In this document: in pieces, positions 30,250 to 45,107 of the stretch | Layout: every line of letters begins with the position of its first letter | How positions within the stretch are numbered: the stretch's first letter is position 1 | Assembly: GCA_963728565.1 (NCBI GenBank) | Contig: CAVSLC010000026.1 | Span: 1-47,053, forward strand | Length of the DNA: 47,053 nt | Source: an uncultured delta proteobacterium | GTDB lineage: Bacteria; Desulfobacterota; Binatia; UBA9968 | Direction of reading: 5' to 3' | The notes under the pieces: generated by a model | Told to the model about the DNA's origin: nothing | The model's input: the letters and a program-made list of their open reading frames with translations, nothing else | Database searches by the model: none | Made by a program: the position numbers and the translations under genes

Positions 30250-30373
30250 GCAGGCTGCTCAAAAACCTCAGAGGCAAGGCGCGCGAAGTTCGATGAGCTG
30301 AGACGTACGCTCAGTACGTTGAAGCGAGTCGGGCCAGCGCAACGAAGCATATGAGGCTTTTTCAGTAGCCTGC
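30250..30373. mobile_element. MITE-like element, copy 1 (~125 bp)
   Basis: Terminal inverted repeats GCAGGCTGCTCAAAAA / TTTTTCAGTAGCCTGC followed by TAG; homologous to 45108-45234. Confidence 0.75.
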
Positions 30374-31236
30374 TAGCTCTTCAAAAACGGCACGCCCAGG
30401 CGCATCAGGTCGTCGAAGGCATCCCAATGCACCATGTGCTTGCAGCCATTGACGATGTGGAGATTGATCTCTGGCTGCATTTTTTTAAGCAATTCGGCGC
30501 GTTCACCGGCGTGCGCGCGGTCTTCGCGGCCAAAGAACATCAACAGCGGCATCTTCAGCTCAGTCAGCCTTTGCCATATTGGCTTGGCCTGCGACGCGCC
30601 GCCGCCGGCGGGGGCGTCCTGGTTCTGGCGTTCCTGGTGCGCCTTGAAATTGCGGCCAGTCATGCGGCTGTGGCGGATCGCCACGTCTTCATCGGAGATC
30701 AATGAATGATTGAAGGTGTCGGCTTGCAAAAGTTTGCGGGCATCCTCCAACGTCGGTTCCTTTTGCGCCATTTCCTTGTCGACCCGCGCCTGTACCGCTT
30801 CGTACTTGCCCACCTGCTCCTGGGTCTGCGGCGGCAGCAGCGAGCCGGTGCCAAGAATGATCACATGCGAGTAGCGGCTGGGATCTTCCAAGGCCAGCTG
30901 AACCGCGAAGCCGCCGGAGCGTGAATGCGCGATCAGCGCGGTCTTGCCCAATCCCGCGGCATCGATGAATTTAGGAATGGAATTGCGTTGCTGCGCCGTG
31001 CTTTGCTTGGCGGGTACGTCGGAGAGGCCAAATCCAGGAAGGTCAAAGGCGACCGCGCGAAATCCGGCTTCGGCAAGAGGACCGAGGTTGCGCAGAAACA
31101 CGTCCGCCGAGCTTCCCAGCGAAGCGCCGTGAAGAAACAGCACCGACGGGCCTGAGCCTTCTTCGATATAACGGAGCTGCAGCCCATCGACGTTAACGAA
31201 CTTATCTTTCGGCTTGGTTCTTTCCACCTTATCCAT
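30373..31236 (-). CDS. Alpha/beta fold hydrolase
   Basis: LFLHG, FDLPGFGLS, nucleophile elbow AHSRSG, GRED, CKHMVH. Confidence 0.9.
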   Translation of the reverse strand: MDKVERTKPKDKFVNVDGLQLRYIEEGSGPSVLFLHGASLGSSADVFLRNLGPLAEAGFRAVAFDLPGFGLSDVPAKQSTAQQRNSIPKFIDAAGLGKTALIAHSRSGGFAVQLALEDPSRYSHVIILGTGSLLPPQTQEQVGKYEAVQARVDKEMAQKEPTLEDARKLLQADTFNHSLISDEDVAIRHSRMTGRNFKAHQERQNQDAPAGGGASQAKPIWQRLTELKMPLLMFFGREDRAHAGERAELLKKMQPEINLHIVNGCKHMVHWDAFDDLMRLGVPFLKS

Positions 31237-31260
31237 GACATCGTCTCCTATTTCGGCAGA

Positions 31261-31340: not shown

Positions 31341-31509
31341 TCATTTTCAATATTCTGTAGCGAGGAAGTTTAACGAAACTTTTTCTTGAGCCGACCTATA
31401 ACGCCGAAGGCACGAGGTGTCAATCACTCGCGGGCTCCGTAGAATGAGTAAACGAGATGCTACCGTTCTGTCCGCGAAATTGCCAGGAAACATCCCAGCG
31501 CTCAGAGCC

Positions 31510-31593
31510 GTCATACCGCGACAAAGCGGCTCCAGATATCTTTCAATTTCGTCGATTCCGAGTCGCGCCAGTTTTCGCGCTTGCCTGAAATGA
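31510..31593. repeat. Degenerate GTCATTCCCGCG-type REP-like element
   Basis: GTCATACCGCG..AGCGGCTCCAG ... GATTCCGAGTCGCGC ... GCTTGCCTGAAATGA. Confidence 0.35.
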
Positions 31594-31756
31594 TGATTAT
31601 TTGCTAGCGCTTGTCCTGAATAGCGCAGCGACTATGGACGGGATTGAATTTTTTGATCGGTTGCCGTCGCATCGAAAAGATCGGACGATTTATGTTTTTT
31701 CGGTTCGCGATGCGGTTTGACCGGGCCGGAACGAATGAAAGGCGAAGGAGAAACCT

Positions 31757-34084
31757 GTGACGATCAAAACACAGACGCTTCTGATGGTAACCGTGTTGCT
31801 CGTCGTCGCGGTCTTCGCCACCGCGGGAGTCGTGGTTTGGGGCTCGCGCCGGGCGTTGCTCGCTGAAAGCGAAACTCAGGGTTTGGTCATCGCCCGGCTC
31901 TTGGCTCGTAGCGCGGCCTTCGGCGCGCAGGTGACCAGCGATGTCGAGAAAGCGATTGGCGAGCAGATGATCGTCGAGGCCACGATCGCTGCGCATTTGG
32001 TGGCTCTGGGTGAGGCGGCAGGAGTCGGCGCGAATGAGATCAACCGGCGACTTAGACAAATTGCCGACGACACGGTGCTGGACGAAATCTGGATTACCGA
32101 CGAGAAGGGTCATGCTTACTTAAGAAATAATACCGAAATAGACTTCACGTTCAGTCCGGATCGGCAGCTGCAACCCCAGGCTCACGCCTTCTGGCCTCTG
32201 CTCACCGGCAAGAACAAAGCTGTCGTCCAGGAGGCGCGTCAGCGCGAAATCGACACGCAGGTTTTCAAATACGTCGGGGTCGCGGGGGTGGATAAGCCGC
32301 GCATCGTCCAGGTCGGTTATCACGCCGCCATGCTTCGACAACTGCAGCAGAGCATGGGGCTGACTCGTCTGGTCAACCAGCTGGTATCCGACGGAAGCGT
32401 CATTGCAATCCGTGTCCTCGACAAGAACATGGTCACCGTGGACTATGCGGAGAGGCTCCGAGACAACAAGCTTCCGGAGCCGACCGAGGCCGACTTCGCG
32501 GTTTGGCGCAACTTGGCGCGCGAAGGGCGAACCGAAAGCTCTTCGGAAGCATCTCTGCTCAAGGTCGTCGTTCCGATCGGCGAAGAGGGGGGAGAGCTAA
32601 AAGGTGGAACAATTCTGGTCACTCTGCCGACGGATCACGTGCAGGCTGCGATTCAGAACAGGATTCGGTTGGCCATGGTGGTGAGCGGGTTGGTATTGTT
32701 GCTCGGGTCGATGATCGCGACCTTTGGCGCCAAGACGATTTCTCGGCCCATTGTCGACCTGACGGAGATGACCCGACGGATCGCAAGCGGTGACTTCACT
32801 CAAAGGATCGCCATCTCGGCAAAGAATGAAATTGGCGCTCTTGCGACCTCGTTCAATGAAATGACCGGGCGCTTGAACGAATCCATCGAGCACCTCAAGG
32901 AAACCACCGCGGCGAAGGAACGCATCGAAAGCGAGCTACAGATCGCCCATGAAATTCAGATGAGCATGGTGCCGAAGATCTTTCCTCCGTTTCCCGAGCG
33001 CAGCGAGTTCGATATTTTCGCCGCTCTGGTGCCGGCCAAGGAGGTAGGAGGGGATCTCTACGACTTCTTCTTCATCGATGACGATCATCTATGTTTTGCA
33101 GTCGGCGACGTCTCCGGCAAGGGAGTACCGGCATCGCTGTTTATGGCCGTGACCAAAACCCTGTTTCGGGCGACCGCCGGCAACGGCGGCAGTCCGGGTG
33201 AAATCCTCGCGCGGTTGAATACCGAGATCTGTCGCGATAACGACTCCTGTATGTTCGTGACCTTCTTTTGTGGGATCTTGAATATCCGCACCGGCCAGGT
33301 CCATTATAGTAACGCCGGGCACAATCTGCCCTTTTATCTTAGCCGCGAGGGCGTCAGTGCTTTGGAAAACTTCGGCGGAATATCCCTGGGGCTTATGGAG
33401 CAAGGCCCCTATGCATCAGGCGGGGTGGTTCTCGGTCCCGGTGAAAGTTTACTGCTTTACACCGACGGCGTGACCGAGGCCATGAATCCGAGCAGAACGC
33501 TTTATTCCGATGAGCGGCTCGAGCTGTTTCTAGGCACAAGTGACAGCTTGGCTCCGCGTCAGATCATCGACAGTTTGATCAGCGATGTAAGGCATTTCGC
33601 TGGCCAAGCGCCGCAATCGGATGATATTACGGTTCTTGCGCTGCAGTATTTTGGGACCGCGAAGCAAATGCTCGAACCGGTCGAGATCAGGGTCCACAAC
33701 AAACTTTCGGAGCTTGACTCAGCTAACCAGACCCTGACGGAATTTGGCCGTCGACACGGACTGCCCGAGAGTGTCCTGCACGACCTCAACCTCGTCGTGG
33801 GGGAACTTCTCACAAACATCATCTCCTATGGTTACGTCGACGACGGCGAACACGAGATCACGGTGAGGCTTAGCGTTGAACCCGGAGAGATAAGAGTCGA
33901 AGTGGAAGATGACGCGAAGCCGTTCAATCCTTTGGAAATGCCGGAGGCCGATACGACGAAACCTTTGGATGAAAGGGCTGTAGGTGGACTGGGCATCCAT
34001 CTCGTGCGCCAGCTCACCGACGGCCTGGAATACCAGAGACGTGAAGGGAAGAATCTACTGGCGATGAGGAAACGCCTGCGCTAG
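31757..34084 (+). CDS. Membrane sensor-HAMP-PP2C (SpoIIE/RsbU) phosphatase fused to an RsbW-like HATPase
   Basis: TM-periplasmic-TM; HAMP (NEIGALATSFNEM); VGGDLYD, GDVSGKG, YTDGVTEA, SDDIT; then ELLTNIISYG, EDDAKPFNP, GGLGIHLV. Confidence 0.93.
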   Translation: MTIKTQTLLMVTVLLVVAVFATAGVVVWGSRRALLAESETQGLVIARLLARSAAFGAQVTSDVEKAIGEQMIVEATIAAHLVALGEAAGVGANEINRRLRQIADDTVLDEIWITDEKGHAYLRNNTEIDFTFSPDRQLQPQAHAFWPLLTGKNKAVVQEARQREIDTQVFKYVGVAGVDKPRIVQVGYHAAMLRQLQQSMGLTRLVNQLVSDGSVIAIRVLDKNMVTVDYAERLRDNKLPEPTEADFAVWRNLAREGRTESSSEASLLKVVVPIGEEGGELKGGTILVTLPTDHVQAAIQNRIRLAMVVSGLVLLLGSMIATFGAKTISRPIVDLTEMTRRIASGDFTQRIAISAKNEIGALATSFNEMTGRLNESIEHLKETTAAKERIESELQIAHEIQMSMVPKIFPPFPERSEFDIFAALVPAKEVGGDLYDFFFIDDDHLCFAVGDVSGKGVPASLFMAVTKTLFRATAGNGGSPGEILARLNTEICRDNDSCMFVTFFCGILNIRTGQVHYSNAGHNLPFYLSREGVSALENFGGISLGLMEQGPYASGGVVLGPGESLLLYTDGVTEAMNPSRTLYSDERLELFLGTSDSLAPRQIIDSLISDVRHFAGQAPQSDDITVLALQYFGTAKQMLEPVEIRVHNKLSELDSANQTLTEFGRRHGLPESVLHDLNLVVGELLTNIISYGYVDDGEHEITVRLSVEPGEIRVEVEDDAKPFNPLEMPEADTTKPLDERAVGGLGIHLVRQLTDGLEYQRREGKNLLAMRKRLR

Positions 34085-34169
34085 CAGGCAAGAGGTTTTT
34101 CAACAACCTCATAGTGCATCAGTAGCCGAAGCCAGGCGGGAATCTTTCGATCACGAAAAGAGGCGCAAT

Positions 34170-34484
34170 ATGAAGGAACTGGAAATCACCGAGCAGCAGT
34201 CGCAATCGACGACGGTTCTTTCCGTCGTTGGCGCCGTGGATAGTAATACGGCTCCGGAGCTACAACAGGCCTTGTTGCGGGCGACTGAGACTTCCACCGG
34301 AGGCGTGGAGCTCGATCTGGCGAAGGTTTCGTATTTGAGCAGCGCCGGCCTGCGCGCTTTGCTGATGGCGGCAAAGGCGCTGCAAAAACGCAGCGAACGC
34401 CTGAAACTTATCAACGTCCCGCTGCCGATAAAGAACGTGTTGAATCTCACCGGCTTTGCGACATTCATCGACGTCAGCCCTTGA
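34170..34484 (+). CDS. STAS anti-anti-sigma factor (RsbV/SpoIIAA-like)
   Basis: GAVDSNTAPEL and LDLAKVSYLSSAGLRAL with the phosphoacceptor Ser region. Confidence 0.93.
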   Translation: MKELEITEQQSQSTTVLSVVGAVDSNTAPELQQALLRATETSTGGVELDLAKVSYLSSAGLRALLMAAKALQKRSERLKLINVPLPIKNVLNLTGFATFIDVSP

Positions 34485-34526
34485 TGCTATAGGCGCGGCC
34501 AAGGACTGCGGCGCGCGCGAGATAGT

Positions 34527-36254
34527 ATGAAGATAGAAGCCAACGTTTGGCAGAAAGTTTCTGGCACCCCTTCCGTCGACATCTTTCCGATCATACCCAA
34601 GGCCAACTGCGTTTCATCGAATTGCTACATTTTTTCCGCTCCCGAGGCGCTCGTGGTCGTCGATCCCGGCGCAAGCGCCGAGCAGACGGAGCAAATAAGC
34701 CGAATTCTAACCGACGCCCTGACAGTGTCACAGCGCCCGGTCCTCCTATTTCTTACCCATTGCCATCAAGACCACTCACAGGAGGCGGATCTTGAACTTC
34801 CCACAGGTACGGAAGTCAAGCGGTTCGCGCACAAGTCGGGAGTTGAGGCGCTCAAGCAGCGCGACCGCAACCTGACTACCGCTTATCTCTATCCGTGGAA
34901 CCCTGAAATATGCACGGCGCGATTCGAGGGAATCCTATTCGCTTCCAGCCCGGCGTCGGAACCGGCCGTGCTGGAATTGTCCGACGGCCGACGATTCGAG
35001 CTTTACACTGAGCCGATGGCGCTGCCCCATGGCGCAACGCTGCAACGACAATGGCTTTCTCTCGGCGCCGGAAATCGCCTTGAGATTTATCACACGCCCG
35101 GACATTCGGCGTGCAGCATATCGTTAAGAATCGGATCGTTGCTGATGCTGGGTGATTTGCCGTTCGCCGCCAACCCCGGCGTGTGCGGCCTCGACGGCTG
35201 GAACCACGGAGATCTTTTGCAAACACTGCGCAACGTCGATGGGCTCCTGGAAATACCCGACATCACGGCGTGTTGCCCCGGGCATGGTTACTGCGTTTCG
35301 GCGCAAAGCATGCGCGAGAAGCTCCGGTTGATGGAGACCGAAGCTTCCAATCTGACCGACGTGCCGCTCATGGATGCCGAACGTATTAGCGCTCTTAAAA
35401 TCTACGCGGATGAACTGCTCGAAGAAACGGCGGCGCTGCTTACGATTTTTTCCGGGCGCCTGTACACGGTGTCTTACTGCCTATCCATGCTCGAGGAGGA
35501 GGGCGGCGCGGCCAGCCGGGTTCTCGAGAGCTTGGATATCGATCAGATCGACCGCATCCTCTCGGACTTTCGCCGTGTCGCGGAAGCGTTCAACTCGAGC
35601 CCCATGCCCGAATGGACCGTAGTGCTCAAAGGCGTTCAAGTCGCCAGATCATTGCAAAAAGTTCTGTCCGCAGAAAACGTTCGGCAAATTCTCGATCTCT
35701 CTCTGGTTGATCGGGCCCAGCGTCGGCTAGAAGATTTCTTGAATCTTGTGCGCGGCTTGCAATTTTTCCAGACCGAGCAGCCGGGAGCCGTAAACGAGAT
35801 CATAACGGAGCTCCTGAAGCAGACCAGGGAAATCACGTTGATGGAATCCGCTGATCTGATGGAAGCGCTGGACGATGAATCTTTTCTGCAGGCTCTCACG
35901 CGCCGAATGGCGGCGTACTCGCCTCTGCGAGGCGTCCAGTTCGAATTTGCGCCGGCCGCGCAGGAGACCAAAGCAAACATCGGCGCGGAGCGGCTCGGCG
36001 ATATATTGACCAATGTGATGGAAGGAATGGCCGGAACGGGCGTCAAGCACATCAGCATTGCCACTCAGGTGTCATCGGGCCAGGTGGAGATTCGACTATC
36101 GAGCCGCGAACGGATGGATTCGGCTGCGTTCGGTAAGCGCCGGCTCGATCTTTACAACAGAACCCTCGGCTGGCTCGGCGGCAGCTTCGAATGCATCCAG
36201 CACGAGGGTAGCCCTGATTTCATCATCAGATTGCCGGCGCTCAAAACAATGTGA
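34527..36254 (+). CDS. MBL-fold metallo-hydrolase fused to a helical region and a degenerate HATPase-like C-terminus
   Basis: SNCY, VVDPG, THCHQDH, HTPGHS, GDLPF, PGHG; C-terminal ERLGDILTNVME...LGGSF...FIIRLP. Confidence 0.8.
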   Translation: MKIEANVWQKVSGTPSVDIFPIIPKANCVSSNCYIFSAPEALVVVDPGASAEQTEQISRILTDALTVSQRPVLLFLTHCHQDHSQEADLELPTGTEVKRFAHKSGVEALKQRDRNLTTAYLYPWNPEICTARFEGILFASSPASEPAVLELSDGRRFELYTEPMALPHGATLQRQWLSLGAGNRLEIYHTPGHSACSISLRIGSLLMLGDLPFAANPGVCGLDGWNHGDLLQTLRNVDGLLEIPDITACCPGHGYCVSAQSMREKLRLMETEASNLTDVPLMDAERISALKIYADELLEETAALLTIFSGRLYTVSYCLSMLEEEGGAASRVLESLDIDQIDRILSDFRRVAEAFNSSPMPEWTVVLKGVQVARSLQKVLSAENVRQILDLSLVDRAQRRLEDFLNLVRGLQFFQTEQPGAVNEIITELLKQTREITLMESADLMEALDDESFLQALTRRMAAYSPLRGVQFEFAPAAQETKANIGAERLGDILTNVMEGMAGTGVKHISIATQVSSGQVEIRLSSRERMDSAAFGKRRLDLYNRTLGWLGGSFECIQHEGSPDFIIRLPALKTM

Positions 36255-36477
36255 TGCGAGCGGTTCCAAAGAACAACGCCGGAAACTCCGCGATAAATGA
36301 GTAAGCCGCCAACAGGGTTGCGTGATCGCACGCTCTCGCCGCAAAGAGACTTTGCGTGCGCGACTCACCCTTGATTTTCCCCTGCTCTTTGCGTCTCAGA
36401 AGAGATGGCCTGCGCACGCTGAATGAGAAAAATTTGGTTGACATCTTTCGCCAAAGATAATCAGAATACGGCTGATC

Positions 36478-37274
36478 ATGCCTAAGCAATCAATCTTTAT
36501 AAGCTACCGGCGGCAAGATACGGCAGCCTACGCGGGTCGCATCTATGATCGCCTGGCGGCGAAATACGGCGAGCCGAATGTTTTTATGGACATCGACAGA
36601 ATCGAGCCGGGACAAGATTTCGTCGACGCCATCAATCATAGCGTGGCGGAAGCGGGCGTCCTCCTTGTCCTCATCGGACGAGAGTGGATCAAGATGACCG
36701 ACAAAAGCGGCGTCCGTCGACTGGACAATCCGGAAGATTTTGTACGATTGGAGATTCTTGCCGGGCTCGAACAAAAGACCGTTATCATCCCGGTTCTTCT
36801 GGCGGACGCCGAGATGCCCTCTGCGCAGGCCTTGCCGGCGCCGCTGCAGCCGTTCGCGCGCAGGAACGCAATCGAGATAAGCGACTCGAGATTTCATTCG
36901 GACGTGGATCGATTGATCGAAGCCATCGAAAAAATATTCAATCCACAGAGAGCCGCGGTGCCACCGATCAGACCCGAGCAGCGAAACCAAAGTTCGATGC
37001 CATTTATTAGCGCGAGTTCGCGTCCTAACATGAGCTTCATTGCCGCGGCGGTTGTGGCGGTGGCACTGATGGTCGCGGGAATTTGGTGGTTCACGACCGG
37101 AGGCGAGCGCGAAGCAAGTTTTCAGGGAGAACCCTATATCCAGTCTCCGCCGAAGTCTGCCGAGAAGTCGCCGAGAACTCACCGCGTCAAGATCCACGCC
37201 AGTCTCCCGTGCAACAAGATCCAACCCAAATGAGTCCGGCATATAATCCTAGACAGAGTGCTCCAGCCCAGTAA
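36478..37274 (+). CDS. TIR_2 domain membrane protein; probable frameshift near 37175 in the Pro/Gln-rich tail (stop at 37233 as given)
   Basis: IFISYRRQD, VFMDIDRIEPGQDF, RRLDNPEDFVRLEI, IPVL; TM helix; alternative tail SPRQDPRQSPVQQDP. Confidence 0.85.
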
Positions 37275-37303
37275 GCAGCTCGGTGCGGTGATAGGAAGTT
37301 TCC

Positions 37304-37417
37304 CTATCTGCCGTCGTCGATGCCGACGAGGATGATGGCGTTGGCGATCAGCCAACCATCGTCGCCCTTTCATGGAGCACATGGAGGACCACGTTGATGT
37401 GCCCGCCGCTGGGCAAA
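37304..37417 (-). pseudogene. Degenerate third copy of the Lin0512-family 3' end
   Basis: Reads GDDGWLIANAIILVGIDDGR* and LPSGGHINVV, against GKDGWLIANAIIVVSIDDGK* and LPHGGGHVNVV in 41529-41873; small deletions. Confidence 0.85.
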
Positions 37418-37597
37418 GCCAAACAGTTGAGCGGTCGAAGCAATCTGGGTTCTGGCTCGCTCTCCCCAACGCTCATCCAGGACCGCAGGACCGCTCGCGC
37501 GCGATGGGGACGTTTAAAAAATCCATTGACATGAGATTTCCATGGTGGGTACTCTCCGCAGTGCGTCAGATCATTTGCTGGCGTGATCGGAGGGCCC

Positions 37598-38587
37598 ATG
37601 AGACACGCACTGCGAGCAGCTTGTCTGGTTCATAGCCTTCTGTGGGTTCAAACGGCCGTTGCCGAGCCGAGCGTGAGAGATCTGGCGGCACGGACTGAAG
37701 TACATCCCATTCAGACGCTCACCGTTTCAGTGCGGCAGTTCTTGACCGGAGACCAAGATGGCAAACCCGTGACCATCGCGGGCCATCTGCGCTTTCCACA
37801 AGCGGCGAGCGGCCGGTTGCCGGCAGATCATCCTGCAACATGGCTCGTCCGGCTCCAATGCACGCGACGAACTCTGGGCAAAAACTTTCAACGAGATGGG
37901 GATCGCGACATTTTCGGTAGACAGCTTCTCCGGGCGCGGCCTGGTTCGTACATCGACGAATCTTGGGCAGTTCAACTTGTATAGCGTCATTCTCGACGCC
38001 TATCGCGCCTTCAACGTGCTGGCGGATCATTCGCGAATCGATCCGACGCGGATTGCAATCATGGGGTTTTCACTGGGCGGCGTCTCGGCACTCTACTCGA
38101 GCATGAAAAGATTTCAGAAAATGTGGAACTCACGGGTTGCTTATCGTCGCCCACATTCCCTTTTATGCCGGCTGCTCTGCTACGTATATCGGCGACACCG
38201 ACGTGGGCGCCGCGCCCATACGACAGTTTCACGGCGCGGCCGACGACTACACGCCCGTGGCGCCGTGCCGGGCTTATTTTGAACGACTGCGCGCTGCCGG
38301 GCGCGATGCCGTGCTGACCGAGTACCCGGACGCGCATCATAGTTTTGATAATCCGCTCGGCAATAAGGTTCCGACGATCTCGAAGGGCTCGCAAAAGCTT
38401 CCGCGGATGCAAGCTCAAGGAAGAGCCGCTCGGCACGATGGTCCACGCCGAATCGGGCGAGCGCTTCACCTGGAAGGACCCGTGCATTCAAAGCGACCCG
38501 CACACCGGCTACAATGAGGCGGCGGCGAGCGCCGCGCGGGTTGCCGTCAAGGATTTCGTGAGAACACTATTCAAGCTGGAACGGTGA
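37598..38587 (+). pseudogene. Dienelactone hydrolase-family protein with about three frameshifts (~37826, ~38140, ~38400)
   Basis: Signal peptide; LQHGSSG, VDSFSGRG, GFSLGG, FHGAADDY, YPDAHHSFD, GYNEAAA spread over four reading-frame segments. Confidence 0.8.
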
Positions 38588-38658
38588 AAATCTTTTGCGA
38601 AGGACTTGCCACTGAGTCGGACAAAAATTTTCAATCGATACGAAAGGAGCCGATAGCA

Positions 38659-39289
38659 ATGAAAAGTATGCGCGCGATTACTCTGGAGCTACTGCTCGTG
38701 ATGGGACTCACGGTTATGGGGTGCTCATCGGAGATGTCTAATCGGGGAGACACAGGTTGGATCACGCTTCTCGACGGCTCGAATCCGAAGACCCTGGACA
38801 ACTGGAACCGGATCGGCGACGCCAATTGGCGAGCCGAGGATGGCGCCATCGTGGCCGACAAAGGCAAAGGTGGCCATCTGGTCTCGAAGAACTCCTATAA
38901 GGATTTCCAAATTCGCGCCGAGTTCTGGGCGGACCACACCACCAATAGCGGGATCTTTTTTCGCGTTTCCGATCCCACAACCATCGGATCCAAAAACGCT
39001 TACGAGGCGAATATCTACGATCAGCGCCCGGGGCAGGAATACAGCACCGGAGCGATCGTCGATGTCGCCAAGGTGTCTCCGATCCCGAAGGCGGGCGGCA
39101 AGTGGAATACCTATCGAAATCACCGCCAAAGGCTCACATCTAACGGTCGTTCTCAATGGCGCCAAAACCGCCGATGTCCAGCACAGCCAGTTCACGGAGG
39201 GTCCGATCTCGCTCCAGTTTGGCAACCGTGAAAAAGGAGCCCCAGGCGGCGCGATCAAATGGCGCAGAGTGCAGATCAGGCCGCTGTAA
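38659..39289 (+). pseudogene. DUF1080 (3-keto-disaccharide hydrolase-like) lipoprotein; frameshift near 39112
   Basis: AAGGAG RBS, MGC lipobox, GWITLLDG, NSGIFFR, YEANIYD, GKWNT; then EITAKG...GPISLQ...IKWRRVQIRPL in the shifted frame. Confidence 0.8.
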
Positions 39290-39360
39290 CCCGTGTCATC
39301 ACAGCGCAGCAGCAAAGCTGCTCGTCGATAAAGGTTCAAAAGAAGGATTGAGGGATTGAA

Positions 39361-39656
39361 CTCTCCAATCTTATGATTGCGGCGCCGAATTGGGCCGAAG
39401 TTCGCTACATCGTAGAACGAAAAGTTGGTCTTTCGGAATGGCTTCGGGTCCGAGCGCGGTTGCTGGGTCTACCTCTAAATATAGTTCCCGCCGACCAAGA
39501 GTTGTCGGAGTGGCTGGTGAGTTGAAAGTGGTGAAAAAGATGTCTTTGGCGGATTGTTTTGCCGCAGCACTGGCGAAGCGGGAAAAGGCGGAAATATACA
39601 CCGGAGATCCCGAGTTCAAGACGGTGGAGCGAGAAATCAAAGTCATTTGGTTATAG
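39361..39656 (+). pseudogene. vapC: 5'-truncated, frameshifted VapC (PIN) toxin remnant
   Basis: NWAEVRYIVERK...LPLNIVPADQELSE, shift at ~39510, then AGELK...SLADCFAAALAK...YTGDPEFK...IWL. Confidence 0.75.
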
Positions 39657-39694
39657 GAGCTTCTTGCGGCTCTAAACAAATACGCAATACGCAA

Positions 39695-40228
39695 TCACGA
39701 CCCTCCTGATTCCGGCTGAGCCTGATGGTATTCTTTGTCTATCGCTGCAAGCACGAGGTCGAAGTCATCGAAGTTTTCGCCTTTAGCGAGATCTATGATC
39801 CGACCGAATTCCGGCCAATCCCTTGTATCAAACCAATGAGGAAACGTTTTCAGAAACCAGCCGAGAAAGCCGGTTACCTCCGGCGACATTGTCTGCGTAA
39901 GAATTGAATGAACCACCGCCGCTTCAAAGAGATGGAATTTGGTGGCTTCAGGGAAAAAGGCGAACTGCTGCTCTGGGTCCTTATCTGCATGTTTCAAAAA
40001 GTTTTGGGCTGATCGATAAGCCCGCCTGAGATCCGGGTCTAAGCGATCAAAGATGATCTTTATGTCTTTAGGCCTGGCAAGATCCGTAAGAATCCCCTGG
40101 GCAGCCGCAGCCAAAGTATGGACGGCGAGCAAGTCTTTGCGTTCAAAGAAAAGTCGGATTGCAACGCGCAACTGACGATCGGCCGCCTCGACCTTACTGA
40201 TGATCTGATATTGATATTTGCCCAACAT
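39695..40228 (-). CDS. Hypothetical alpha-helical protein, possibly HEPN-like
   Basis: KVEAADRQLRVAIRLFF, AVHTLAAAA, QNFLKHADKDP. Confidence 0.65.
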   Translation of the reverse strand: MLGKYQYQIISKVEAADRQLRVAIRLFFERKDLLAVHTLAAAAQGILTDLARPKDIKIIFDRLDPDLRRAYRSAQNFLKHADKDPEQQFAFFPEATKFHLFEAAVVHSILTQTMSPEVTGFLGWFLKTFPHWFDTRDWPEFGRIIDLAKGENFDDFDLVLAAIDKEYHQAQPESGGS

Positions 40229-40432
40229 AATAGCGCGAGGATTCTAACACTGCACCAGTGCCATTACCAGAAAAGCGAGCGGTCCGCGCGGTTCGAGCCA
40301 GCATTCTAGAGCTTCGAGCAGATCATAGGCTTTCTGTAAGCTCCGCTCGTTCCCTCATCGTGAATCCCGGCTTGAGATTCTCCATCAGCCGGTTGAAAAG
40401 TTTCTTTGCACCGTTAGATTCCTGATGCACGG

Positions 40433-40480
40433 GGAACGATTTGAACGTAGCGTAGCGATTGAACGGCTTGAACGTTTTGA
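40433..40480. repeat. TTGAACG-type REP-like repeat
   Basis: GAACGATTTGAACGTAGCGTAGCGATTGAACGGCTTGAACGTTTTGA, close to 42130-42176. Confidence 0.75.
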
Positions 40481-40493
40481 CCAAAAGTTGCGG

Positions 40494-40673
40494 TTATTTC
40501 CCGTCGTCGATGCTGACGACGATGATGGCGTTGGCGATCAGCCATCCGTCCTGGCCAGTTTCATTTAGCACCTGCAATCCGCCTTGAACCACGTTGACGT
40601 GGCCGCCGCCGTGGGGCAACGTTTCCAGGACGGACTGCTTATCTACTGCAGCGGGCTTGGGCAACGCTGATGG
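40494..40673 (-). pseudogene. Second copy of the Lin0512-family 3' half (no 5' half)
   Basis: PKPAAVDKQSVLETLPHGGGHVNVVQGGLQVLNETGQDGWLIANAIIVVSIDDGK* aligns ungapped with 41529-41696. Confidence 0.92.
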
Positions 40674-40735
40674 CTCAAATATCCGTTCTGAAAAACTTTC
40701 GCCACGTCGAGCAAATTGATCCAATTGGTGGACCG

Positions 40736-40754
40736 TGATAGCATTATGCTATCA
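40736..40754. promoter_or_regulatory. Probable TA autoregulatory operator
   Basis: Perfect palindrome TGATAGCAT-T-ATGCTATCA just upstream of the antitoxin RBS. Confidence 0.7.
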
Positions 40755-40771
40755 AAATGGAAGGAGCCAAG

Positions 40772-41002
40772 ATGGGTCAAGTATTGGTGAGAAACCTCCC
40801 GGCAGAAGTTGTGAAAAAGCTGAAAAGCAGAGCCAAGCAACACCGGCGTTCACTGCAAGAGGAACTCAAGAACATTCTTGAGCAGGCAGCTGAGCATAAC
40901 GTGAAAGACATTCAAGCTAACGTCAACACGGTTCGCAAGCTCTTTGCCGGCCGTAAGTTCAGTGACAGTTCCGATCTGATTCGGCAAGATCGGGCGCGGT
41001 GA
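40772..41002 (+). CDS. FitA-like ribbon-helix-helix antitoxin
   Basis: MGQVLVRNLPAEVVKKLKSRAKQHRRSLQEELKNIL and DSSDLIRQDR; GTGA overlap with the toxin. Confidence 0.88.
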   Translation: MGQVLVRNLPAEVVKKLKSRAKQHRRSLQEELKNILEQAAEHNVKDIQANVNTVRKLFAGRKFSDSSDLIRQDRAR

Positions 41003-41424
41003 GCCTCTTTGTCGTTGACGCAAGTGTGGCGATCAAGTGGTTCTTGCCGGAAAATCACAGTGAGGCCGCGCTTCGGCTGCTTACTCAACCGCATACGTTG
41101 CATGCTCCCGACCTGATCTTTTCAGAGTTCGGCAACGTTCTCTGGAAGCGGGTTAGAAGAAACGAGATCCTTAAAGAGGAAGCCGATGCAATACTGGAGG
41201 GCTTGCGAACTCTTAACCTCCAAGTGCAACCCTCGCAGGCGCTAATTCCGTTAGCGCTTGAAATCGCATGTGGCGAGAATCGTACCGTCTATGACAGTCT
41301 TTATCTCGCTGCCGCAATTGCGCTTCAGTCGCCGTTAATCACGGCCGATGCCAGATTTTTTCGCGCTCTTAGTAAAGGACCCTTCTCGGCGCATCTGCTT
41401 TGGGTCGAGGACATCCCACAGTAG
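40999..41424 (+). CDS. vapC: VapC PIN-domain toxin
   Basis: VVDASVAIKW, EFGNVLWK, TVYDSLYLA, LITAD. Confidence 0.92.
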   Translation: MSLFVVDASVAIKWFLPENHSEAALRLLTQPHTLHAPDLIFSEFGNVLWKRVRRNEILKEEADAILEGLRTLNLQVQPSQALIPLALEIACGENRTVYDSLYLAAAIALQSPLITADARFFRALSKGPFSAHLLWVEDIPQ

Positions 41425-41528
41425 CTTTATTCAGCTTATCGAACGTGAAACACGGGCCGACTACTTTGTCCGGTTAAGATGCGGCGTTCCGTGACTCAGT
41501 AGGAAGAGAGCTCGGCTCAATCACTTCG

Positions 41529-41873
41529 CTATTTTCCGTCGTCGATGCTGACGACGATGATCGCGTTGGCGATCAGCCATCCGTCCTTGCCCGTTTCATT
41601 GAGCACCTGCAATCCGCCTTGAACCACGTTGACGTGCCCGCCGCCGTGGGGCAACGTTTCCAGCACGGCCTGCTTATCTACCGCTTCGGGCTTCGGCACG
41701 CCGATGGTGACATCGACCCGCATATCGTCGGCGGTCTTTCCCACTAGCTTGGGAAATCCCAAGCTGCTGTGATGGATGGCATCGAACACCGCTCGCTTGG
41801 CGGCACTCGTGTAATCCAATCCGTGAACATCCACTCCCATCCCCATTTCTGTAACGCACCGTACCAAAGCCAT
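41529..41873 (-). CDS. Lin0512 family protein
   Basis: EMGMGVDVHG.DYTSAAKRAVFDAIHHSSL, VTIGVPKPEAVD, LPHG, GGL, IANA; GGAGG RBS. Confidence 0.88.
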   Translation of the reverse strand: MALVRCVTEMGMGVDVHGLDYTSAAKRAVFDAIHHSSLGFPKLVGKTADDMRVDVTIGVPKPEAVDKQAVLETLPHGGGHVNVVQGGLQVLNETGKDGWLIANAIIVVSIDDGK

Positions 41874-41910
41874 ACTTAGTTACCTCCATGAAGACGAACC
41901 CATTTCAGAA

Positions 41911-42176
41911 GTTCCAAAGGTTCCAATGTTCCAGACGTTCCAATCGTTTCGAATCCGGACAACCCGACGCATGCCAATACGAAGATACGCTGAAGTTCTG
42001 GAACGAAGCAACAGCTGGAACGACAGGAATCTTTCGAACTAGTTTGCCTTGCGACGTGTCGAATCAACTATTGTGCTCGAGACCATTGGAACCATCGCAA
42101 CGTCTGCACGAATGGAATTGTCTTCTCTGACGTTTTGAACGATTGGAACGGAGCGTAGCGGTTGAACGTTTTGAAC
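41911..42176. repeat. Composite intergenic repeat: ~9-bp GTTCCAA tandem (41911-41954) opposite TTGAACG/TTGGAAC units (42130-42176)
   Basis: GTTCCAAAG GTTCCAAT GTTCCAGAC GTTCCAATC at left; GAACGATTGGAACGGAGCGTAGCGGTTGAACGTTTTGAAC at right. Confidence 0.7.
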
Positions 42177-42180
42177 ACGT

Positions 42181-43530
42181 TCATTTTCCCAACGAAGCTG
42201 CCGCATGCTCCGCCGCGATCATGCCGAGACCGAGCGAAGCCAACAATCCGTTTCCCGGCAGATAGCCTTCCAGCCCTTTGCCCGAGACACCCACGGCGAC
42301 ACCGCCGCCGGCGTAAAGATTGGGAATGATCGATCCGTCGGCGCGCAGAACCTGGGCGTCGGTGTTCACCTTCAGGCCGCCCTGAGTATGGTAGAGCGCC
42401 ACGGTTACTTTGATGCCATAGTAGGGCGCCTCGAAAGGCTGGGGCAGAACGCGCCCGAAAGCGTCTTTTTGACCACGCGCCGAGAATGCGTTGCACTCGT
42501 CGATGGTTTGCTTCAGCCCCTCGGCGTCGATGGCCAGTTTGCCGGCGAGCTCCTCCGGCGTTTCGGCCTTCAGCAAAAGCCCGGCGTCGAAAAGACGTCG
42601 CAAGCTTCTCAGGCCCGGCGCGTCTCGATGCGACTGAAAAATCCGCTCATCGAAAATCTCGTAGGCTTGTTTGCCGGGCAGATCGAGCATTTTAATCCCG
42701 AGGCCGCCGGGGTATCGCGTCTCATCGACAAAACGCTTTCCCAAGGCATCGACCATGATGCCGCCGGACAGCGCGACTTCCGGCGGCACCGCGCGCTTTC
42801 CCGGACCGAGGTAGGCAGGATAGGGCTGGAACGCGGCCATGTTCTCCAGCGCCGCGCCAATCTCCAAGCCCATTTTGATGCCGTCGCCGGTGCTGCCATG
42901 ATGGCCGGGGAATGGGATGTCGACGGCTTTGGGAATGTATCGGGACAATAACTCCGTGCTCGCTCCGAATCCGCCCGAGGCCAGAATAATTTTTCGCGCG
43001 GTGAGAATTCCGTCTTTTGTTTTTACTCCGATGACGGCGCCGCCGGCGTCCCGTTCGAGCGCGAGCACCGCCGTGGAGAAGCGTAGCTCGATATTCTTTT
43101 CCCGCTCCACTGCCGCGAACAGAAAATCGGTGATGGTCTTGTCCTCCTTCCACGAGTGTGAGCGCTTGCCGCTGTGGCCGAAGGCAAACTCGCCGATTTG
43201 AAACTCGATGCCGGCTTGGTCCGCGAGAAAGTCGGCGACTCGCCCGGAATTCTCCGCCAGTCGACGGGTGAGGACGGCATCGCTCTCGCCGTTGTTGCGC
43301 CGCAAAATATCTTCGGCATAGAGGGCTGCGCTATCTTGGACGTTCAACTCACGCTGCCGGCGGCTGCCGGCGGCGCGAATGCCCTTGGACGAAAACGCTG
43401 TCCCGCCGCCGGGCTTATCCGTTTTCTCGAGCAACAACACCCGCGCGCCCTTCTTGGCTGCCACCAACGCCGCCATGAGCCCGCATCCGCCCGCGCCGAT
43501 GACGATGATGTCGGGATCTACGTTCTGCAT
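42181..43530 (-). CDS. FAD-dependent oxidoreductase (FAD_binding_2; flavocytochrome c/fumarate reductase flavoprotein-like)
   Basis: IGAGGCG, LASGGF, STGDG, GKRFVDE, HTQGGLKVN, IPNLYAGG. Confidence 0.88.
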   Translation of the reverse strand: MQNVDPDIIVIGAGGCGLMAALVAAKKGARVLLLEKTDKPGGGTAFSSKGIRAAGSRRQRELNVQDSAALYAEDILRRNNGESDAVLTRRLAENSGRVADFLADQAGIEFQIGEFAFGHSGKRSHSWKEDKTITDFLFAAVEREKNIELRFSTAVLALERDAGGAVIGVKTKDGILTARKIILASGGFGASTELLSRYIPKAVDIPFPGHHGSTGDGIKMGLEIGAALENMAAFQPYPAYLGPGKRAVPPEVALSGGIMVDALGKRFVDETRYPGGLGIKMLDLPGKQAYEIFDERIFQSHRDAPGLRSLRRLFDAGLLLKAETPEELAGKLAIDAEGLKQTIDECNAFSARGQKDAFGRVLPQPFEAPYYGIKVTVALYHTQGGLKVNTDAQVLRADGSIIPNLYAGGGVAVGVSGKGLEGYLPGNGLLASLGLGMIAAEHAAASLGK

Positions 43531-43578
43531 GAGATCTGATTCCCAGGGACCAACTTCTCAGACATGACGCTTACTCGC

Positions 43579-44868
43579 TCATCCTGATTTCGAGAATACC
43601 CGGTACACAGCCTGTGCCCCTTCCAACAGACGGTGGTCCTGGTTGCGATGACCGATGAGCTGAATGCCCACCGGCAAACCGGATGGTCCGGTAAAGACTG
43701 GCAGCGTGAGACAGGGAGTATAGGTCCACGTCGATAGAATATTGAAAGACGTATCGCCAGTGCTGGCCAGTCCGGCCGGAGCTTCGCCGGGCGCGCTCGG
43801 TGTGAGCAGCAGGTCTAAATCTTTCATAGCGTCGGCGAGATGACTGCGGCACTTCTCCAGCACGTCCTCGGCTTCGCGGTATTGCTCGTACGAGATATTG
43901 AGCCAGCCGGCGAACTTATCGCGCTGGAACTGGCTCAAGAGGTCCCAATGATGCTGCCGTTCCCAGCTAAGGCCGCGCGAGAACTCGAAATCATTGATGC
44001 GCCGGCCCATGGTCTCGAACTGTTCGAACGGCGCTCCAAGATCGACGTCGGAGACTTTCGCTCCGGCCTTCGCCAGCGCGCTTGCGGCCTCTTCAAGAAA
44101 TTTCTTGGTGTATTCCTCGGCGCGGTCCCAGAACAGTCGGCAAAAGCCGATTTTGAGCTGGTTTACTGAAACATCGGCGAGAGGTTTCGCGGGAAATCCT
44201 GTCAGGGCAGCTCGGAACAGCGCGAGATCCTCGACAGCGCGAGCGAACAACCCAACGGTGTCGAACGATGCGGTATTCTGCTTCACGCCCTGCGTGCTGA
44301 ATTCGCCGAAGCTCGGCTTGTAGCCAATGCAGCCGCAGAACGCCGCCGGACGGATCACCGATCCGACGGTTTGGGTGCCGAACCCCAGCGGCACCATGAA
44401 ATCGCCGACCGCGGCCGCCGAGCCGCTGGAGGAGCCGCCGGGGGTATGCTCCGGGTTGTGCGGATTGGTGGTGTGTCCCAGTGGAGATCGACTGGCGAAC
44501 TCGGTCGTGACCGTCTTGCCCAACAGCACTCCGCCGGCCGCGCGGCTGAGCGCCACACAGGCAGCGTCCGCCTTCGGACGATTGCCTTTATAGATGGGAG
44601 ATCCGTACTCCGTGGGCAAATCGGCGCTATCCATGATGTCCTTGGCGGCGAACGGAATCCCGTGAAGGGGCCCGCGCTTGGCGCTCTTGTCGCATTGCCG
44701 CGCCTGCGCCAGGGCAAATTCGCGGTCCAGATGGACCCACGCCTTCACTTGCGATTCCCGCGAATCGATCCGCTCCAGGCAGGAGCGCACCAGAGCTTCG
44801 GACGTGAGTTTGCCTTCGCCGATGCGCGCCGCCGCTTCATTCGCCGATAAGCGAAATAGATCTGCCAT
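43579..44868 (-). CDS. Amidase signature family protein
   Basis: GPLHGIPFAAKD, GKTVTTEFA, TPGGSSSGSAAAV, GTQTVGSVIRPAAFCG; AGGAG RBS before ATG 44868. Confidence 0.92.
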   Translation of the reverse strand: MADLFRLSANEAAARIGEGKLTSEALVRSCLERIDSRESQVKAWVHLDREFALAQARQCDKSAKRGPLHGIPFAAKDIMDSADLPTEYGSPIYKGNRPKADAACVALSRAAGGVLLGKTVTTEFASRSPLGHTTNPHNPEHTPGGSSSGSAAAVGDFMVPLGFGTQTVGSVIRPAAFCGCIGYKPSFGEFSTQGVKQNTASFDTVGLFARAVEDLALFRAALTGFPAKPLADVSVNQLKIGFCRLFWDRAEEYTKKFLEEAASALAKAGAKVSDVDLGAPFEQFETMGRRINDFEFSRGLSWERQHHWDLLSQFQRDKFAGWLNISYEQYREAEDVLEKCRSHLADAMKDLDLLLTPSAPGEAPAGLASTGDTSFNILSTWTYTPCLTLPVFTGPSGLPVGIQLIGHRNQDHRLLEGAQAVYRVFSKSG

Positions 44869-45107
44869 GTGATTCTCCTTCAACGATTGTAAAGAGGAAT
44901 TCATCCGGAAACTTTTCCGAACATAACCGAGCAGGCGTGGTGACTGCAACAACAACTCGAACGAGCGGCGACCCCGAGTGCGGAAAGGAGACCTTCTTTT
45001 TCTCTTGCGTGACGAGCAGGAACCGCGATAGATGGCACTTATGGAACGGACGGCGCGCGGTTCGGTACGCCGAATTCGTTATCGCATAATCGTGCTGAAA
45101 GCCTCTC

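Follow-up and report, generated by a model that had tools for sequence, protein, structure and literature searches.

The window analysed here is a stretch of 47,053 nt that carries one intact Lin0512-family gene, whose protein is 80-98% identical in amino acids to those of 80 loci and has no toxin features. The 3' end of this gene occurs three times in direct orientation, as the original prediction held, and the copies match one another far above chance. In a blastn comparison of the gene region with the window, 41530-41707 aligns with 40495-40673 (92.2% identity, 179 nt, E 1e-70) and 41525-41644 aligns with 37300-37409 (79.2%, 120 columns, E 2e-24). With a nucleotide profile of 79 Lin0512 genes, fragment 2 was located to 40495-40673 (E 3e-41, covering gene nt 167-344) and fragment 3 to 37305-37449 (E 2e-19, covering gene nt 183-344), the latter reaching about 30 nt beyond the 37304-37417 first proposed. 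The repeat in fragment 2 starts at gene nt ~167, and in all three copies the repeat ends at the stop codon. Both genes anchoring the upstream side are common to the related locus L001, and the amidase is also found in L016, L023, L027 and L071. The alpha/beta-hydrolase gene follows Lin0512 at 0.3-0.8 kb in L029 and L023 and at 4.1 kb in L022; because it is a conserved downstream neighbour in these three loci, it is probably the far edge of the variable region. The features are summarized in Table 1.

Table 1. Features of the Lin0512 locus, from the upstream anchor genes to the likely outer limit of the variable region.
Feature	Position	Strand	Basis or description
Upstream anchor genes	42181..44955	-	FAD oxidoreductase 42181-43530; amidase 43579-44955
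Lin0512-family gene, intact, 114 aa, 345 nt	41529..41873	-	PF09585 E 1.6e-32; TIGR02058 above cut-off
Repeat copy 1	41529-41707	-	last 179 nt of the intact Lin0512 gene
fitA-vapC cargo	40674..41528	+	fitA 40757-41002, PF22513 E 7.6e-14; vapC 40999-41424, PIN E 7e-16
Fragment 2, displaced Lin0512 3' end	40494..40673	-	gene nt ~167-345; 92% identity to copy 1
Fragment 2 downstream flank	40331..40493	-	orthologous to the flank after the intact gene in L001
177-aa ORF	39695..40228	-	large uncharacterised all-helical family; GC 0.50
vapC (PIN) remnant	39364..39690	+	weak PIN match; 5'-truncated, without antitoxin gene
DUF1080 / 3-keto-disaccharide hydrolase pseudogene	38584..39289	+	PF06439 across two frames
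Dienelactone-hydrolase (DLH)-type pseudogene	37583..38517	+	Pfam matches spread over three frames
Fragment 3, old 3' fragment of a different Lin0512 allele (L002/L026-like)	37304..37449	-	profile and blastn
TIR-domain gene	36478..37233	+	TIR_2 E 1.2e-13; between fragment 3 stop codon and MBL block
MBL-STAS-SpoIIE block	31664..36263	+	Pfam; MBL-fold (575 aa) 34527-36254; STAS 34170-34484; SpoIIE/HAMP/HATPase 31757-34084
Putative residue of a fourth displaced fragment	31654..31669	-	L002 alignment stops here
Alpha/beta-hydrolase gene	30373..31236	-	conserved downstream neighbour

The cargo nearest the gene, a fitA-vapC pair whose two members are both borne out by domain matches, begins right after the Lin0512 stop codon and is 855 nt long. 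Its GC content is 0.51 against 0.58-0.61 in the neighbours, and the pair was found neither in L001 nor in any of the 80 Lin0512 loci. It had been named the newest arrival; it may be no recent one, since the ORF at the cargo-side junction of fragment 2 recurs in protein records (P0121-P0124 and P0131) at 84-95% identity, P0121 matching at 95% over the full length. The 177-aa ORF, earlier called HEPN-like, belongs to a family with 2178 representatives at E<=0.001 and has no match in Pfam, NCBIfam or PADLOC. Its structure model (pLDDT 90.9) matches nothing in the PDB at E<=0.001, a HEPN protein ranking 7th with probability 0.72, and the HEPN-like identity is unconfirmed by the domain, PADLOC and structure searches. 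The vapC remnant was read correctly, being 85.5% identical at the nucleotide level to L025 10319-10648, which lies within an intact PIN gene with a MazE-type antitoxin. The frameshifts predicted in the two genes beyond it consist of six single-base insertions relative to intact L001 orthologues: two +1 frameshifts in the DUF1080 pseudogene (near 39244 and 39113) and four +1 insertions in the DLH pseudogene (near 38396, 38143, 37827 and 37594), whose L001 counterpart is a 340-aa ORF. The TIR gene has weak ThsB-like matches and is an indel relative to L002, which has none at this position. The array is not made up of toxin-antitoxin and defence genes alone; a regulatory module of the partner-switching type and two pseudogenes of hydrolases are also part of its cargo. 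Integrase, transposase and resolvase families are absent from 129 window ORFs of at least 90 aa (those lying wholly inside the window), in agreement with what had been said of integrases, and from 111 ORFs of 12 related loci; searches for tRNA genes and Rfam families gave no match.

Fragment 2 bears the signature of a once-functional allele, as the original prediction proposed from a codon count that proved exact on recount. Over the last 56 codons it differs from the gene at 12 codons, comprising 8 synonymous changes, 3 missense changes (E63A, A69S, K96Q) and a TAG/TAA swap. When substitutions were placed at random for the 13 of 170 nt that differ, three or fewer non-synonymous changes arose in 0.02% of 20,000 trials, and 8 of the 13 differences are third-position states present in 2-34 of 37 related functional genes. 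Both results support divergence as a working gene end. In a tree, the window gene, the L001 gene and fragment 2 form one group with a support of 0.976.

Fragment 3 had been described as the end of this same gene, decayed with distance, and does not fit that description. Over its last 66 nt it matches the L002 and L026 genes at 94-95% identity and the gene in the window at only 85%, and it shares with the L002 gene a CTC at codon 107 that occurs in 2 of 38 genes. Judged by these sites, fragment 3 is a different allele, nearest L026 and L002. Its 5' part is eroded by indels, the decay being independent in the window and in L001, where the orthologue lies at 19701-19824 with the same flank on the TIR side. 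The MBL-STAS-SpoIIE block beyond it is 86.1% identical over 4620 nt to L002 10382-14992. The same block thus has the same ends in two contexts: L002 has an intact Lin0512 gene immediately before it and a 57-nt 3' fragment after it, and the homology stops distally at window 31664, corresponding to L002 14992. The rare CTC-107 allele precedes the block in both L002 and the window, and gene end and cargo appear to have travelled together, each end being followed by the block with which it seems to have come. Where L002 has its 57-nt fragment, window positions 31654..31669 are possibly the remnant of a fourth fragment, too short for significance alone.

Relatives provide further partial copies. 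A gene-profile search of 81 sources returned seven extra copies at E<=3e-4 in six sources, namely the window (2), L001, L002, L006, L009 and L029, and all seven are in direct orientation. On the downstream side of the intact gene are all four 3' fragments and the single internal one, and on its upstream side are both 5' fragments (L006 and L029), which speaks against the 3'-specific process originally envisaged. The start points vary (gene nt ~167, 183-204 and 288), the L009 fragment and fragment 2 having the same one (gene nt ~164-167). Truncated Lin0512 ORFs also occur in metagenome protein sets, where they are partly due to frameshifts and contig ends, and their number is weak evidence.

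For three events, empty-site comparators are available. L001 has the same FAD oxidoreductase-Lin0512 arrangement with a single intact gene end and no toxin-antitoxin pair, and this end with its 170-nt flank corresponds to fragment 2 with its flank (window 40485->40331 against L001 10365-10519, 91% and then 81% identity). The first ~60 nt of this flank are a GTTCAA-type repeat dispersed across loci. The L002 fragment and 14-18 nt of its flank match the gene end and flank of L013 and L008, with which L002 shares its upstream gene. L029 mirrors this pattern at the 5' end: its 5' fragment retains as upstream neighbour an ornithine-cyclodeaminase-family gene that, in 9 of the 10 loci holding it, is directly upstream of intact Lin0512. 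Downstream content among the relatives varies and 3' fragments recur, so the invariant content without 3' duplicates that would have counted against the original prediction is not what they show. Among locus pairs of this group with a shared 3 kb upstream, only 4 of 38 also share the 3 kb downstream; in Dehalococcoidia, 288 of 295 pairs share the downstream 3 kb, despite more synonymous divergence of the genes. By this comparison, Lin0512 marks a synteny break in this group only. Several MAGs of the group have 2-3 Lin0512 loci each, which provides many targets.

We favour, with moderate confidence, the view that the region downstream of Lin0512 is a variable accessory-gene region of a Binatia-like bacterium that has grown by repeated insertion into the Lin0512 gene, with homologous recombination and not a dedicated integrase as the agent. 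Accessory blocks would then have entered the tail of a small conserved gene repeatedly, with no integrase gene nearby. The core of the original accretion model is backed by L001, L002 and L029, whereas its 3' specificity and its account of fragment 3 are not; the interval between fragments 2 and 3 is not one cassette and contains two further differences from L001, neither with a fragment, so other processes are also at work in the array. Each insertion would bring in part of a Lin0512 gene together with a block of genes, and after landing one intact gene would be kept while the displaced end came to lie beyond the cargo as a direct repeat. Cassettes are most likely inserted and spread by the general homologous recombination of the cell, presumably through a RecA-type agent, with the partial copies serving as homology arms. 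A block with the gene on one side and a fragment on the other would carry its own two arms and could thus be copied into any Lin0512 locus, orthologue or paralogue, either by an ordinary double crossover or by loop-out between the repeats and single-crossover re-entry; the intermediates, whether circular or linear, and the sequence in which the events took place are likewise conjectural. For a cassette to form in the first place, a single illegitimate join would be needed, through homology-facilitated illegitimate recombination, the process to which displacement arrays are attributed in one source (PMC5361080). Hotspots without mobile-element genes recombine at flanking core genes, according to another (PMC5635113). 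The use of both gene ends is explained by recombination anywhere in the conserved gene but not by a single attachment site.

This mechanism is read from its end products, and several features count against it. At 57 nt in L002 and 179 nt in the window, the right-hand arms are so short as to be a poor substrate for homologous recombination. A DUF1080 gene lies upstream of intact Lin0512 in L002 but is cargo in the window, which a simple stacking order does not account for. Polarity also seems ambiguous. Incoming DNA had been thought to supply the replacement 3' end; insertion is supported by the L001 comparison, but either the working end or fragment 2 may be the newcomer. Identity to the L001 3' end is 95.3% for the working end and only 91.8% for fragment 2, although it is fragment 2 that has the L001-type flank, and the informative sites switch back and forth between these two ends.

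The discrete ends of the repeats and cargo (stop codon, distal end of the MBL block, fitA-side junction) also fit a site-specific element. The blocks could be decayed islands or cassettes without an integrase, CIME-like or IMEX/pdif-like, that a recombinase encoded elsewhere in the genome has inserted at an att site at the extreme 3' end, the partial copies being attL and attR. Such an origin, which we consider improbable, would account for direct repeats that enclose cargo and an intact gene that is always restored, for the shared stop-codon boundary, for the identical MBL block ends in two genomes, and for the recurring fragment 2 junction and the common start of fragment 2 and the L009 fragment. 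Tandem accretion is on record for cis-mobilizable elements whose integrase has been lost (PMC5704250). Codons 107-113 moreover form a 7-6-7 inverted repeat in which third-position variation is somewhat low; however, the Val-Val-x-x-Asp-Asp codons give rise to this repeat, which may be coincidence, and conservation at synonymous sites is not confined to the 3' end. The missing recombinase families in the window and the 12 related loci, the unequal start points, and the 5' fragments of L006 and L029, which have no 3' site, all weigh against it.

It is likewise unlikely that two or three full-length Lin0512 genes, each with its own neighbours, once lay a few kb apart and that deletions took the 5' parts of the downstream copies, with nothing inserted. 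MAGs of the group do carry multiple Lin0512 loci, the allele of fragment 3 differs, L002 has an intact gene at the syntenic spot between DUF1080 and the MBL block, and fragment 3 is old, decaying independently in two loci. However, two full-length copies within 10 kb occur in 0 of 81 sources, and the layout of 3' fragments downstream and 5' fragments upstream would arise by random decay with a chance of roughly 1 in 32 to 1 in 64. The empty-site relatives have a single gene followed by the flank that here adjoins a fragment, and fragment 2 falls in the window/L001 allele clade and not with a distant paralogue. Although the window resembles a metagenome-assembled contig, the ~8% difference between fragment 2 and the gene is within strain or species range and six +1 insertions packed in two adjacent genes are unusual, a merging of strain variants into one contig is very improbable, given that L001, an independent assembly, contains fragment 3 and its flank as well, that P0121 matches the junction ORF over the full length, that L002, L006 and L029 share the architecture, and that an 855-nt toxin-antitoxin cassette lies between the copies, which a collapsed bubble would not yield.

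Insertion into Lin0512 by homologous recombination shares features with several known systems. In E. coli, prophage e14 sits in the icd gene, as does phage 21. The e14 element lies within the 3' end of this protein gene, for which it provides a new end, while the former end (the icdC pseudogene) persists as a direct-repeat fragment past the element; the two ends differ mainly by conservative changes, and deletion between them gives a chimeric working gene (PMC13626634). Prophage e14 has a site-specific integrase of its own and is excised upon SOS induction, whereas the Lin0512 locus is without a recombinase, its cargo can be <1 kb, there is a stack of several events, and the 5' end is affected too. 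In ICE/IME/CIME accretion of the ICESt1/ICESt3 type, the target is also a gene 3' end, older members lack integration genes and the newest adjoins the gene (PMC5704250); these systems have a known tyrosine integrase, short att cores and a helper ICE in the same genome or array, but neither an att core nor an integrase is demonstrable here.

Rhs/CDI/T6SS displacement arrays also use a conserved gene part to anchor incoming DNA by homology, moving the previous 3' end and partner gene downstream into a chronological array with no integrase (PMC5361080). In those arrays another toxin domain comes in along with its immunity gene, and the function served is diversity of toxins and immunity; at Lin0512 the incoming end encodes the same conserved protein and the cargo genes are unrelated. 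Integrase-free hotspots likewise have a variable block between conserved genes with fast turnover among close relatives, but their arms are two different core genes and there is no duplication (PMC5635113). At Lin0512 both arms derive from a single gene of 345 nt, of which partial copies stay behind. Integron cassette arrays also stack small integrase-less modules, often toxin-antitoxin pairs, at one site with a recombinase in trans, and IMEX at dif and the pdif modules of Acinetobacter plasmids are similarly stacked, small and integrase-less, often with toxin-antitoxin genes and a trans recombinase. At the Lin0512 locus no IntI, attI or attC-like sites were found and no dif-like site is shown; its repeats, unlike those modules, are 57-179 nt of coding sequence.

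The 47-kb window (55.6% GC) carries a Lin0512-family gene and, downstream of it, two partial copies of its 3' end, which are listed with the neighbouring features in the table. The gene matches PF09585 at 112 bits (cut-off 23.4) and TIGR02058 at 69 bits (cut-off 56.85), and these full-length profile matches above the curated cut-offs place it in the family. No paper was found under the names Lin0512, TIGR02058 or PF09585, and the sole relative in the PDB is an uncharacterised protein (3c8l). A mobile-element origin of Lin0512 was rejected because none of 72,556 plasmid records matched it in tblastn. The repeat runs up to the stop codon in both fragments; it begins at gene nt ~167 in fragment 2, and fragment 3 is also recovered by a 79-gene profile (E 2e-19). 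The codon count originally made for fragment 2 (eight synonymous changes, three missense changes and a TAG/TAA exchange) is exact, and its synonymous excess is significant (P ~2e-4 in 20,000 random-substitution trials). The original prediction held that incoming DNA enters the gene, gives it a new end and moves the old end downstream, and this central idea is supported by the geometry of the copies, by pairs of loci with empty sites and by the linkage of gene ends to cargo. Insertion in this region is real and recurrent; its mechanism is read from the end products.

Features of the Lin0512 region in the window
Feature	Position	Orientation	Remarks
Lin0512-family gene, 114 aa	41529-41873	minus	PF09585 and TIGR02058, each over cut-off
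fitA-vapC	between gene and fragment 2	opposite strand to gene	intact; PF22513 51.8 bits, PIN 59.4 bits
Fragment 2	40494-40673	same as gene (direct)	92.2% identity over 179 nt, E 1e-70
160-nt flank	after fragment 2 in gene direction		first part is a dispersed GTTCAA-type repeat
177-aa ORF	39695-40228		large uncharacterised helical family
vapC, 5'-truncated	after 177-aa ORF in gene direction		intact relative with antitoxin in related locus L025
DUF1080 and dienelactone-hydrolase-type genes	37583-39289		six single-base insertions versus intact L001 orthologues
Fragment 3	37304 to ~37449	direct	79% over 120 columns with indels, E 2e-24
TIR-domain gene	between fragment 3 and MBL block		
MBL-fold/STAS/SpoIIE-HAMP-kinase block	31757-36254; 10395-14895 in related locus L002		partner-switching-type
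alpha/beta-hydrolase gene	30373-31236		probable end of variable region

The relatives are the best 80 of 391 related loci from one genome-contig scan, and among these the closest to the window come from MAGs labelled 'uncultured delta proteobacterium' or Candidatus Binatia. A high-identity group (loci L001-L038 and L071) shares 83-98% amino acid identity, and the remaining loci are from Dehalococcoidia (77-82%). L001, the closest among those 80, has the amidase, FAD oxidoreductase and Lin0512 genes arranged as in the window, without fitA-vapC and without a second gene end. The end of its gene and the next 170 nt align with fragment 2 and its flank in the window, the flank at 91% and then 81% identity. 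L001 further shares the DUF1080 and hydrolase genes (both intact), fragment 3 and the TIR gene, and holds other content, free of fragments, at two places between those shared parts. It is an 'empty' relative and not an excision product. In L002, the intact Lin0512 gene is directly followed by the MBL-STAS-SpoIIE block, which aligns with window 36263->31664 over 4.6 kb at 86% identity, and a 57-nt 3' fragment stands behind the block. This fragment with 14-18 nt of flank corresponds to the gene end and flank of L013 and L008, two loci in which the upstream gene of L002 is present and the block absent.

Loci L029 and L006 are mirror images, in which a 5' fragment lies upstream of the cargo and the intact gene; the repeat spans -34 to +90 in L029 (86% identity) and -129 to +132 in L006 (94% identity). 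The upstream neighbour of the 5' fragment in L029 is an ornithine-cyclodeaminase-family gene, which in 9 of the 10 loci containing it stands directly upstream of intact Lin0512 with matching spacing. An internal piece, gene nt 164-233, is found 1 kb downstream of the gene in L009 and starts at the same position as fragment 2. Of 81 sources, six (all from the high-identity group) contain between them seven partial copies at E<=3e-4. Every copy is in direct orientation, with 3' and internal pieces downstream of the gene and 5' pieces upstream. None of the 41 Dehalococcoidia loci holds a fragment.

Synteny in the high-identity group breaks at Lin0512. There, 38 pairs of loci share 3 kb upstream, only 4 of which also share 3 kb downstream, and 13 pairs share the downstream side, with the upstream common to 4 of the 13. 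Nucleotide homology between high-identity pairs stops at most 5 nt from the stop codon in 444 of 528. Among Dehalococcoidia, 288 of 295 upstream-sharing pairs share the downstream side too; synonymous divergence is greater in this class, with a mean third-position entropy of ~1.4-1.7 bits versus 0.6-0.9 in the high-identity group.

The cargo between the gene ends is varied. The fitA (PF22513) and vapC (PIN) scores are both over cut-off and the genes overlap by 4 nt (40999-41002); as an RHH antitoxin gene overlapping a downstream PIN toxin gene, the pair is a predicted type II toxin-antitoxin system of the FitA/VapB-VapC kind. The 177-aa ORF belongs to a family with 2178 representatives (50% clustering) in which K79-H80 is invariant and R18 and Q19 are near-invariant. 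Its AlphaFold model is confident and all-helical; no Pfam family, no match in profile libraries and no significant fold match in a PDB search were found. The best HEPN structure match, 2hsb, comes only at rank 7 (E 0.86, probability 0.72, TM 0.44), and the invariant pair is K79-H80, not the HEPN motif Rx4-6H. The HEPN-like identity first given to this ORF stays tentative after profile libraries, the ESM Atlas, the AlphaFold model and the PDB search. GC content is ~0.50 in the toxin-antitoxin cassette, the 177-aa ORF and the vapC remnant versus 0.55-0.61 around them. All six frameshifts in the DUF1080 and hydrolase genes are +1 insertions relative to L001, with zero deletions and most of them outside homopolymers, a pattern unusual for natural decay that may reflect consensus error. 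The furthest block, comprising a SpoIIE/HAMP phosphatase with a kinase-like domain, a STAS protein and a 575-aa MBL-fold protein, forms a conserved partner-switching-type module that behaves as one transferable block. The interval from the TIR gene to the MBL gene yielded no Lin0512 fragment.

Some smaller features of the loci were also recorded. In L001, a 4.8-kb block replaces the 177-aa ORF and vapC remnant of the window and includes a split HATPase_c_3 protein (13597-14912) that weakly resembles BbrUII-type restriction and MzaB proteins and possibly represents another defence gene. An amidohydrolase_2 gene is present as a tandem duplicate in L001 (2244-3416, 4540-5849) and as a single copy in the window. 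A short repeat of GTTCAA/GTTCCA units lies at 40434-40485, 42130-42183 and 41906-41945 of the window, behind the stop codons of Lin0512 (fragment 2) and the FAD oxidoreductase, and occurs also in L006, L009, L012, L026 and L029. Since relatives carry several copies per locus, it is a lineage-specific intergenic repeat family.

Fragment 3 had been taken for a worn copy of the window gene, but its last 66 nt are closer to the genes of L026 (95.5%) and L002 (93.9%) than to the window gene (84.8%). It has CTC at codon 107, which among genes is found in only 2 of 38, L002 being one of them. The CTC-107 allele stands just upstream of the MBL-STAS-SpoIIE block both in L002, as the intact gene, and in the window, as fragment 3. 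Homology between the window and L002 stops at one distal point, where L002 has its displaced fragment and the window a 16-nt trace; a fourth fragment behind SpoIIE in the window was rejected, as this trace is not significant. The shared allele, the block and the common distal end show that gene end and cargo occur as one unit, with identical ends, in two contexts. Fragment 3 is old, because its copies in the window and L001 have decayed differently.

A tree of the 3' 170 nt places fragment 2 with the window and L001 genes (support 0.976), with an ambiguous order inside the group. Third-position states found in 2-34 of 37 related genes account for eight of the 13 differences of fragment 2, and the other five, which include the three missense codons, are found in none of the 37. 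Post-displacement decay was rejected as the source of these five nucleotides, since they include E63A and A69S, which are common to other fragment records and therefore older. A junction ORF that starts on the fitA side and reads on into the fragment has counterparts in the protein records P0121 (95%, full length), P0122 (84%), P0123, P0124 and P0131. Given this recurrence and the missense changes common to other records, the junction is real in independent data; it probably predates the split of the window and L001, in which case L001 may have lost the fitA-vapC cassette by recombination between repeats. Only junction-bearing records were used from the protein database; fragment counts were set aside because the N-terminal 'fragments' include many contig ends and frameshifted read-throughs. 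Identity of the L001 3' end is 95.3% to the working end and 91.8% to fragment 2, with informative sites that favour now one, now the other. Per-segment identities, site-by-site polarisation (L001 and 37 genes) and the 3' 170-nt tree gave no clean answer on the polarity of the fitA-vapC event, so that either end may have been the incoming one.

The targeting of the 3' end alone, as originally proposed, gives way to use of both gene ends, given the 5' fragments in L029 and L006. Because both ends are used, fragment starts vary and 240 ORFs contain no recombinase gene, general homologous recombination in a conserved multi-copy gene fits better than a 3'-specific attachment site. Several MAGs contain 2-3 Lin0512 loci. 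The founding event would be one illegitimate join that forms a gene end with cargo. A block flanked by gene and gene fragment would then carry its own homology arms, so that a double crossover could copy it into any other Lin0512 locus, or the block could loop out and re-enter by a single crossover. A homology-facilitated founding join is proposed in one report for T6SS and Rhs displacement arrays (PMC5361080). Another describes many horizontal-transfer hotspots without any mobile-element gene, where gene gain is presented as unsettled, and has such hotspots recombine at flanking core genes (PMC5635113).

A less probable rival is insertion of the blocks by a recombinase acting in trans. It is favoured by ends that are discrete and recurring, by short arms and by a 7-6-7 inverted repeat that immediately precedes the stop codon. 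This repeat lies in the Val-Val-Ser-Ile-Asp-Asp codons (codons 107-113, 41529-41560), is also found in the fragments, and has third positions less variable than the gene average in the high-identity group. Extra 3' synonymous conservation was rejected as the sign of a DNA site, because variation in that group is low gene-wide with a weak dip at codons 107-112. The 3' repeats have a common distal end at the stop codon and start at different points (gene nt ~167, 183-204, 288), the 5' events do not include the gene's 3' end, and other block boundaries lack the 7-6-7 repeat. In IMEX and pdif modules, each boundary has a 28-bp dif-like site (two 11-bp arms, 6-bp spacer). A Xer-like agent is one comparison for a recombinase in trans. 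Another is CIME-like accretion, as described in PMC5704250. As in CIME accretion, direct repeats bound each element and one restores the target gene; the tyrosine or serine recombinase of that system has no counterpart here, since integrase, transposase and resolvase families are absent from 129 window ORFs (at least 90 aa) and from 111 ORFs of 12 loci. It is quite improbable that the last ~60 nt of Binatia-like Lin0512, with the 7-6-7 repeat, are an attachment site for small cassettes lacking an integrase, moved in and out by a recombinase of the host (Xer-like or some other acting in trans). If true, this would be an integron-like cassette system on the end of a protein-coding gene, shared by the paralogues of a genome.

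Decay of tandem paralogues is less likely, and two full-length Lin0512 copies within 10 kb occur in none of the 81 sources; assembly error is likewise less likely. An integron was rejected for want of an integrase family and of an Rfam match in 30000-44000, and because the flank repeat consists of direct GTTCAA-type units with no imperfect palindrome. The window has no tRNA or tmRNA gene and no integrase, which removes a tRNA island, and a known RNA is dismissed as Rfam gave no match in 30000-44000 at E<=1. A promoter and terminator scan gave nothing useful.

Among known systems, e14 in icd with its icdC fragment, as described in PMC13626634, is the closest structural analogue of the Lin0512 array. 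CIME/ICE accretion is closest in stacking, and the Rhs, CDI and T6SS orphan arrays are closest in integrase-free displacement. The latter arrays have a conserved 5' core and variable toxic 3' tips with an immunity gene, whereas the displaced Lin0512 ends encode the same conserved C-terminus of a gene without a toxin domain, and the likeness is of mechanism only. What sets the Lin0512 case apart from all of these systems is a displaced piece that forms the conserved end of a small non-toxin gene, a cargo of unrelated genes, the use of both gene ends and no recombinase seen.

Lin0512 insertions leave readable scars. Each one keeps the preceding gene end as a remnant, which makes it possible to count events, to order them in part and to pair them with 'empty' relatives. 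Were homologous recombination the sole agent, a small multi-copy conserved gene would be a portable landing pad, and toxin-antitoxin, TIR and regulatory modules would hop, with no integrase involved, between loci and genomes of an uncultured soil phylum. Such hotspots can be searched for by a simple rule, namely an intact gene accompanied, a few kb off, by a partial copy of its own end in direct orientation. Separately, the protein records P0155, P0153 and P0147-P0149 have the last 25-39 Lin0512 codons fused to unrelated sequence, which in P0155 is the C-terminus of a molybdopterin-binding-domain protein, and in these records two different upstream sequences meet Lin0512 at one codon, ~76.
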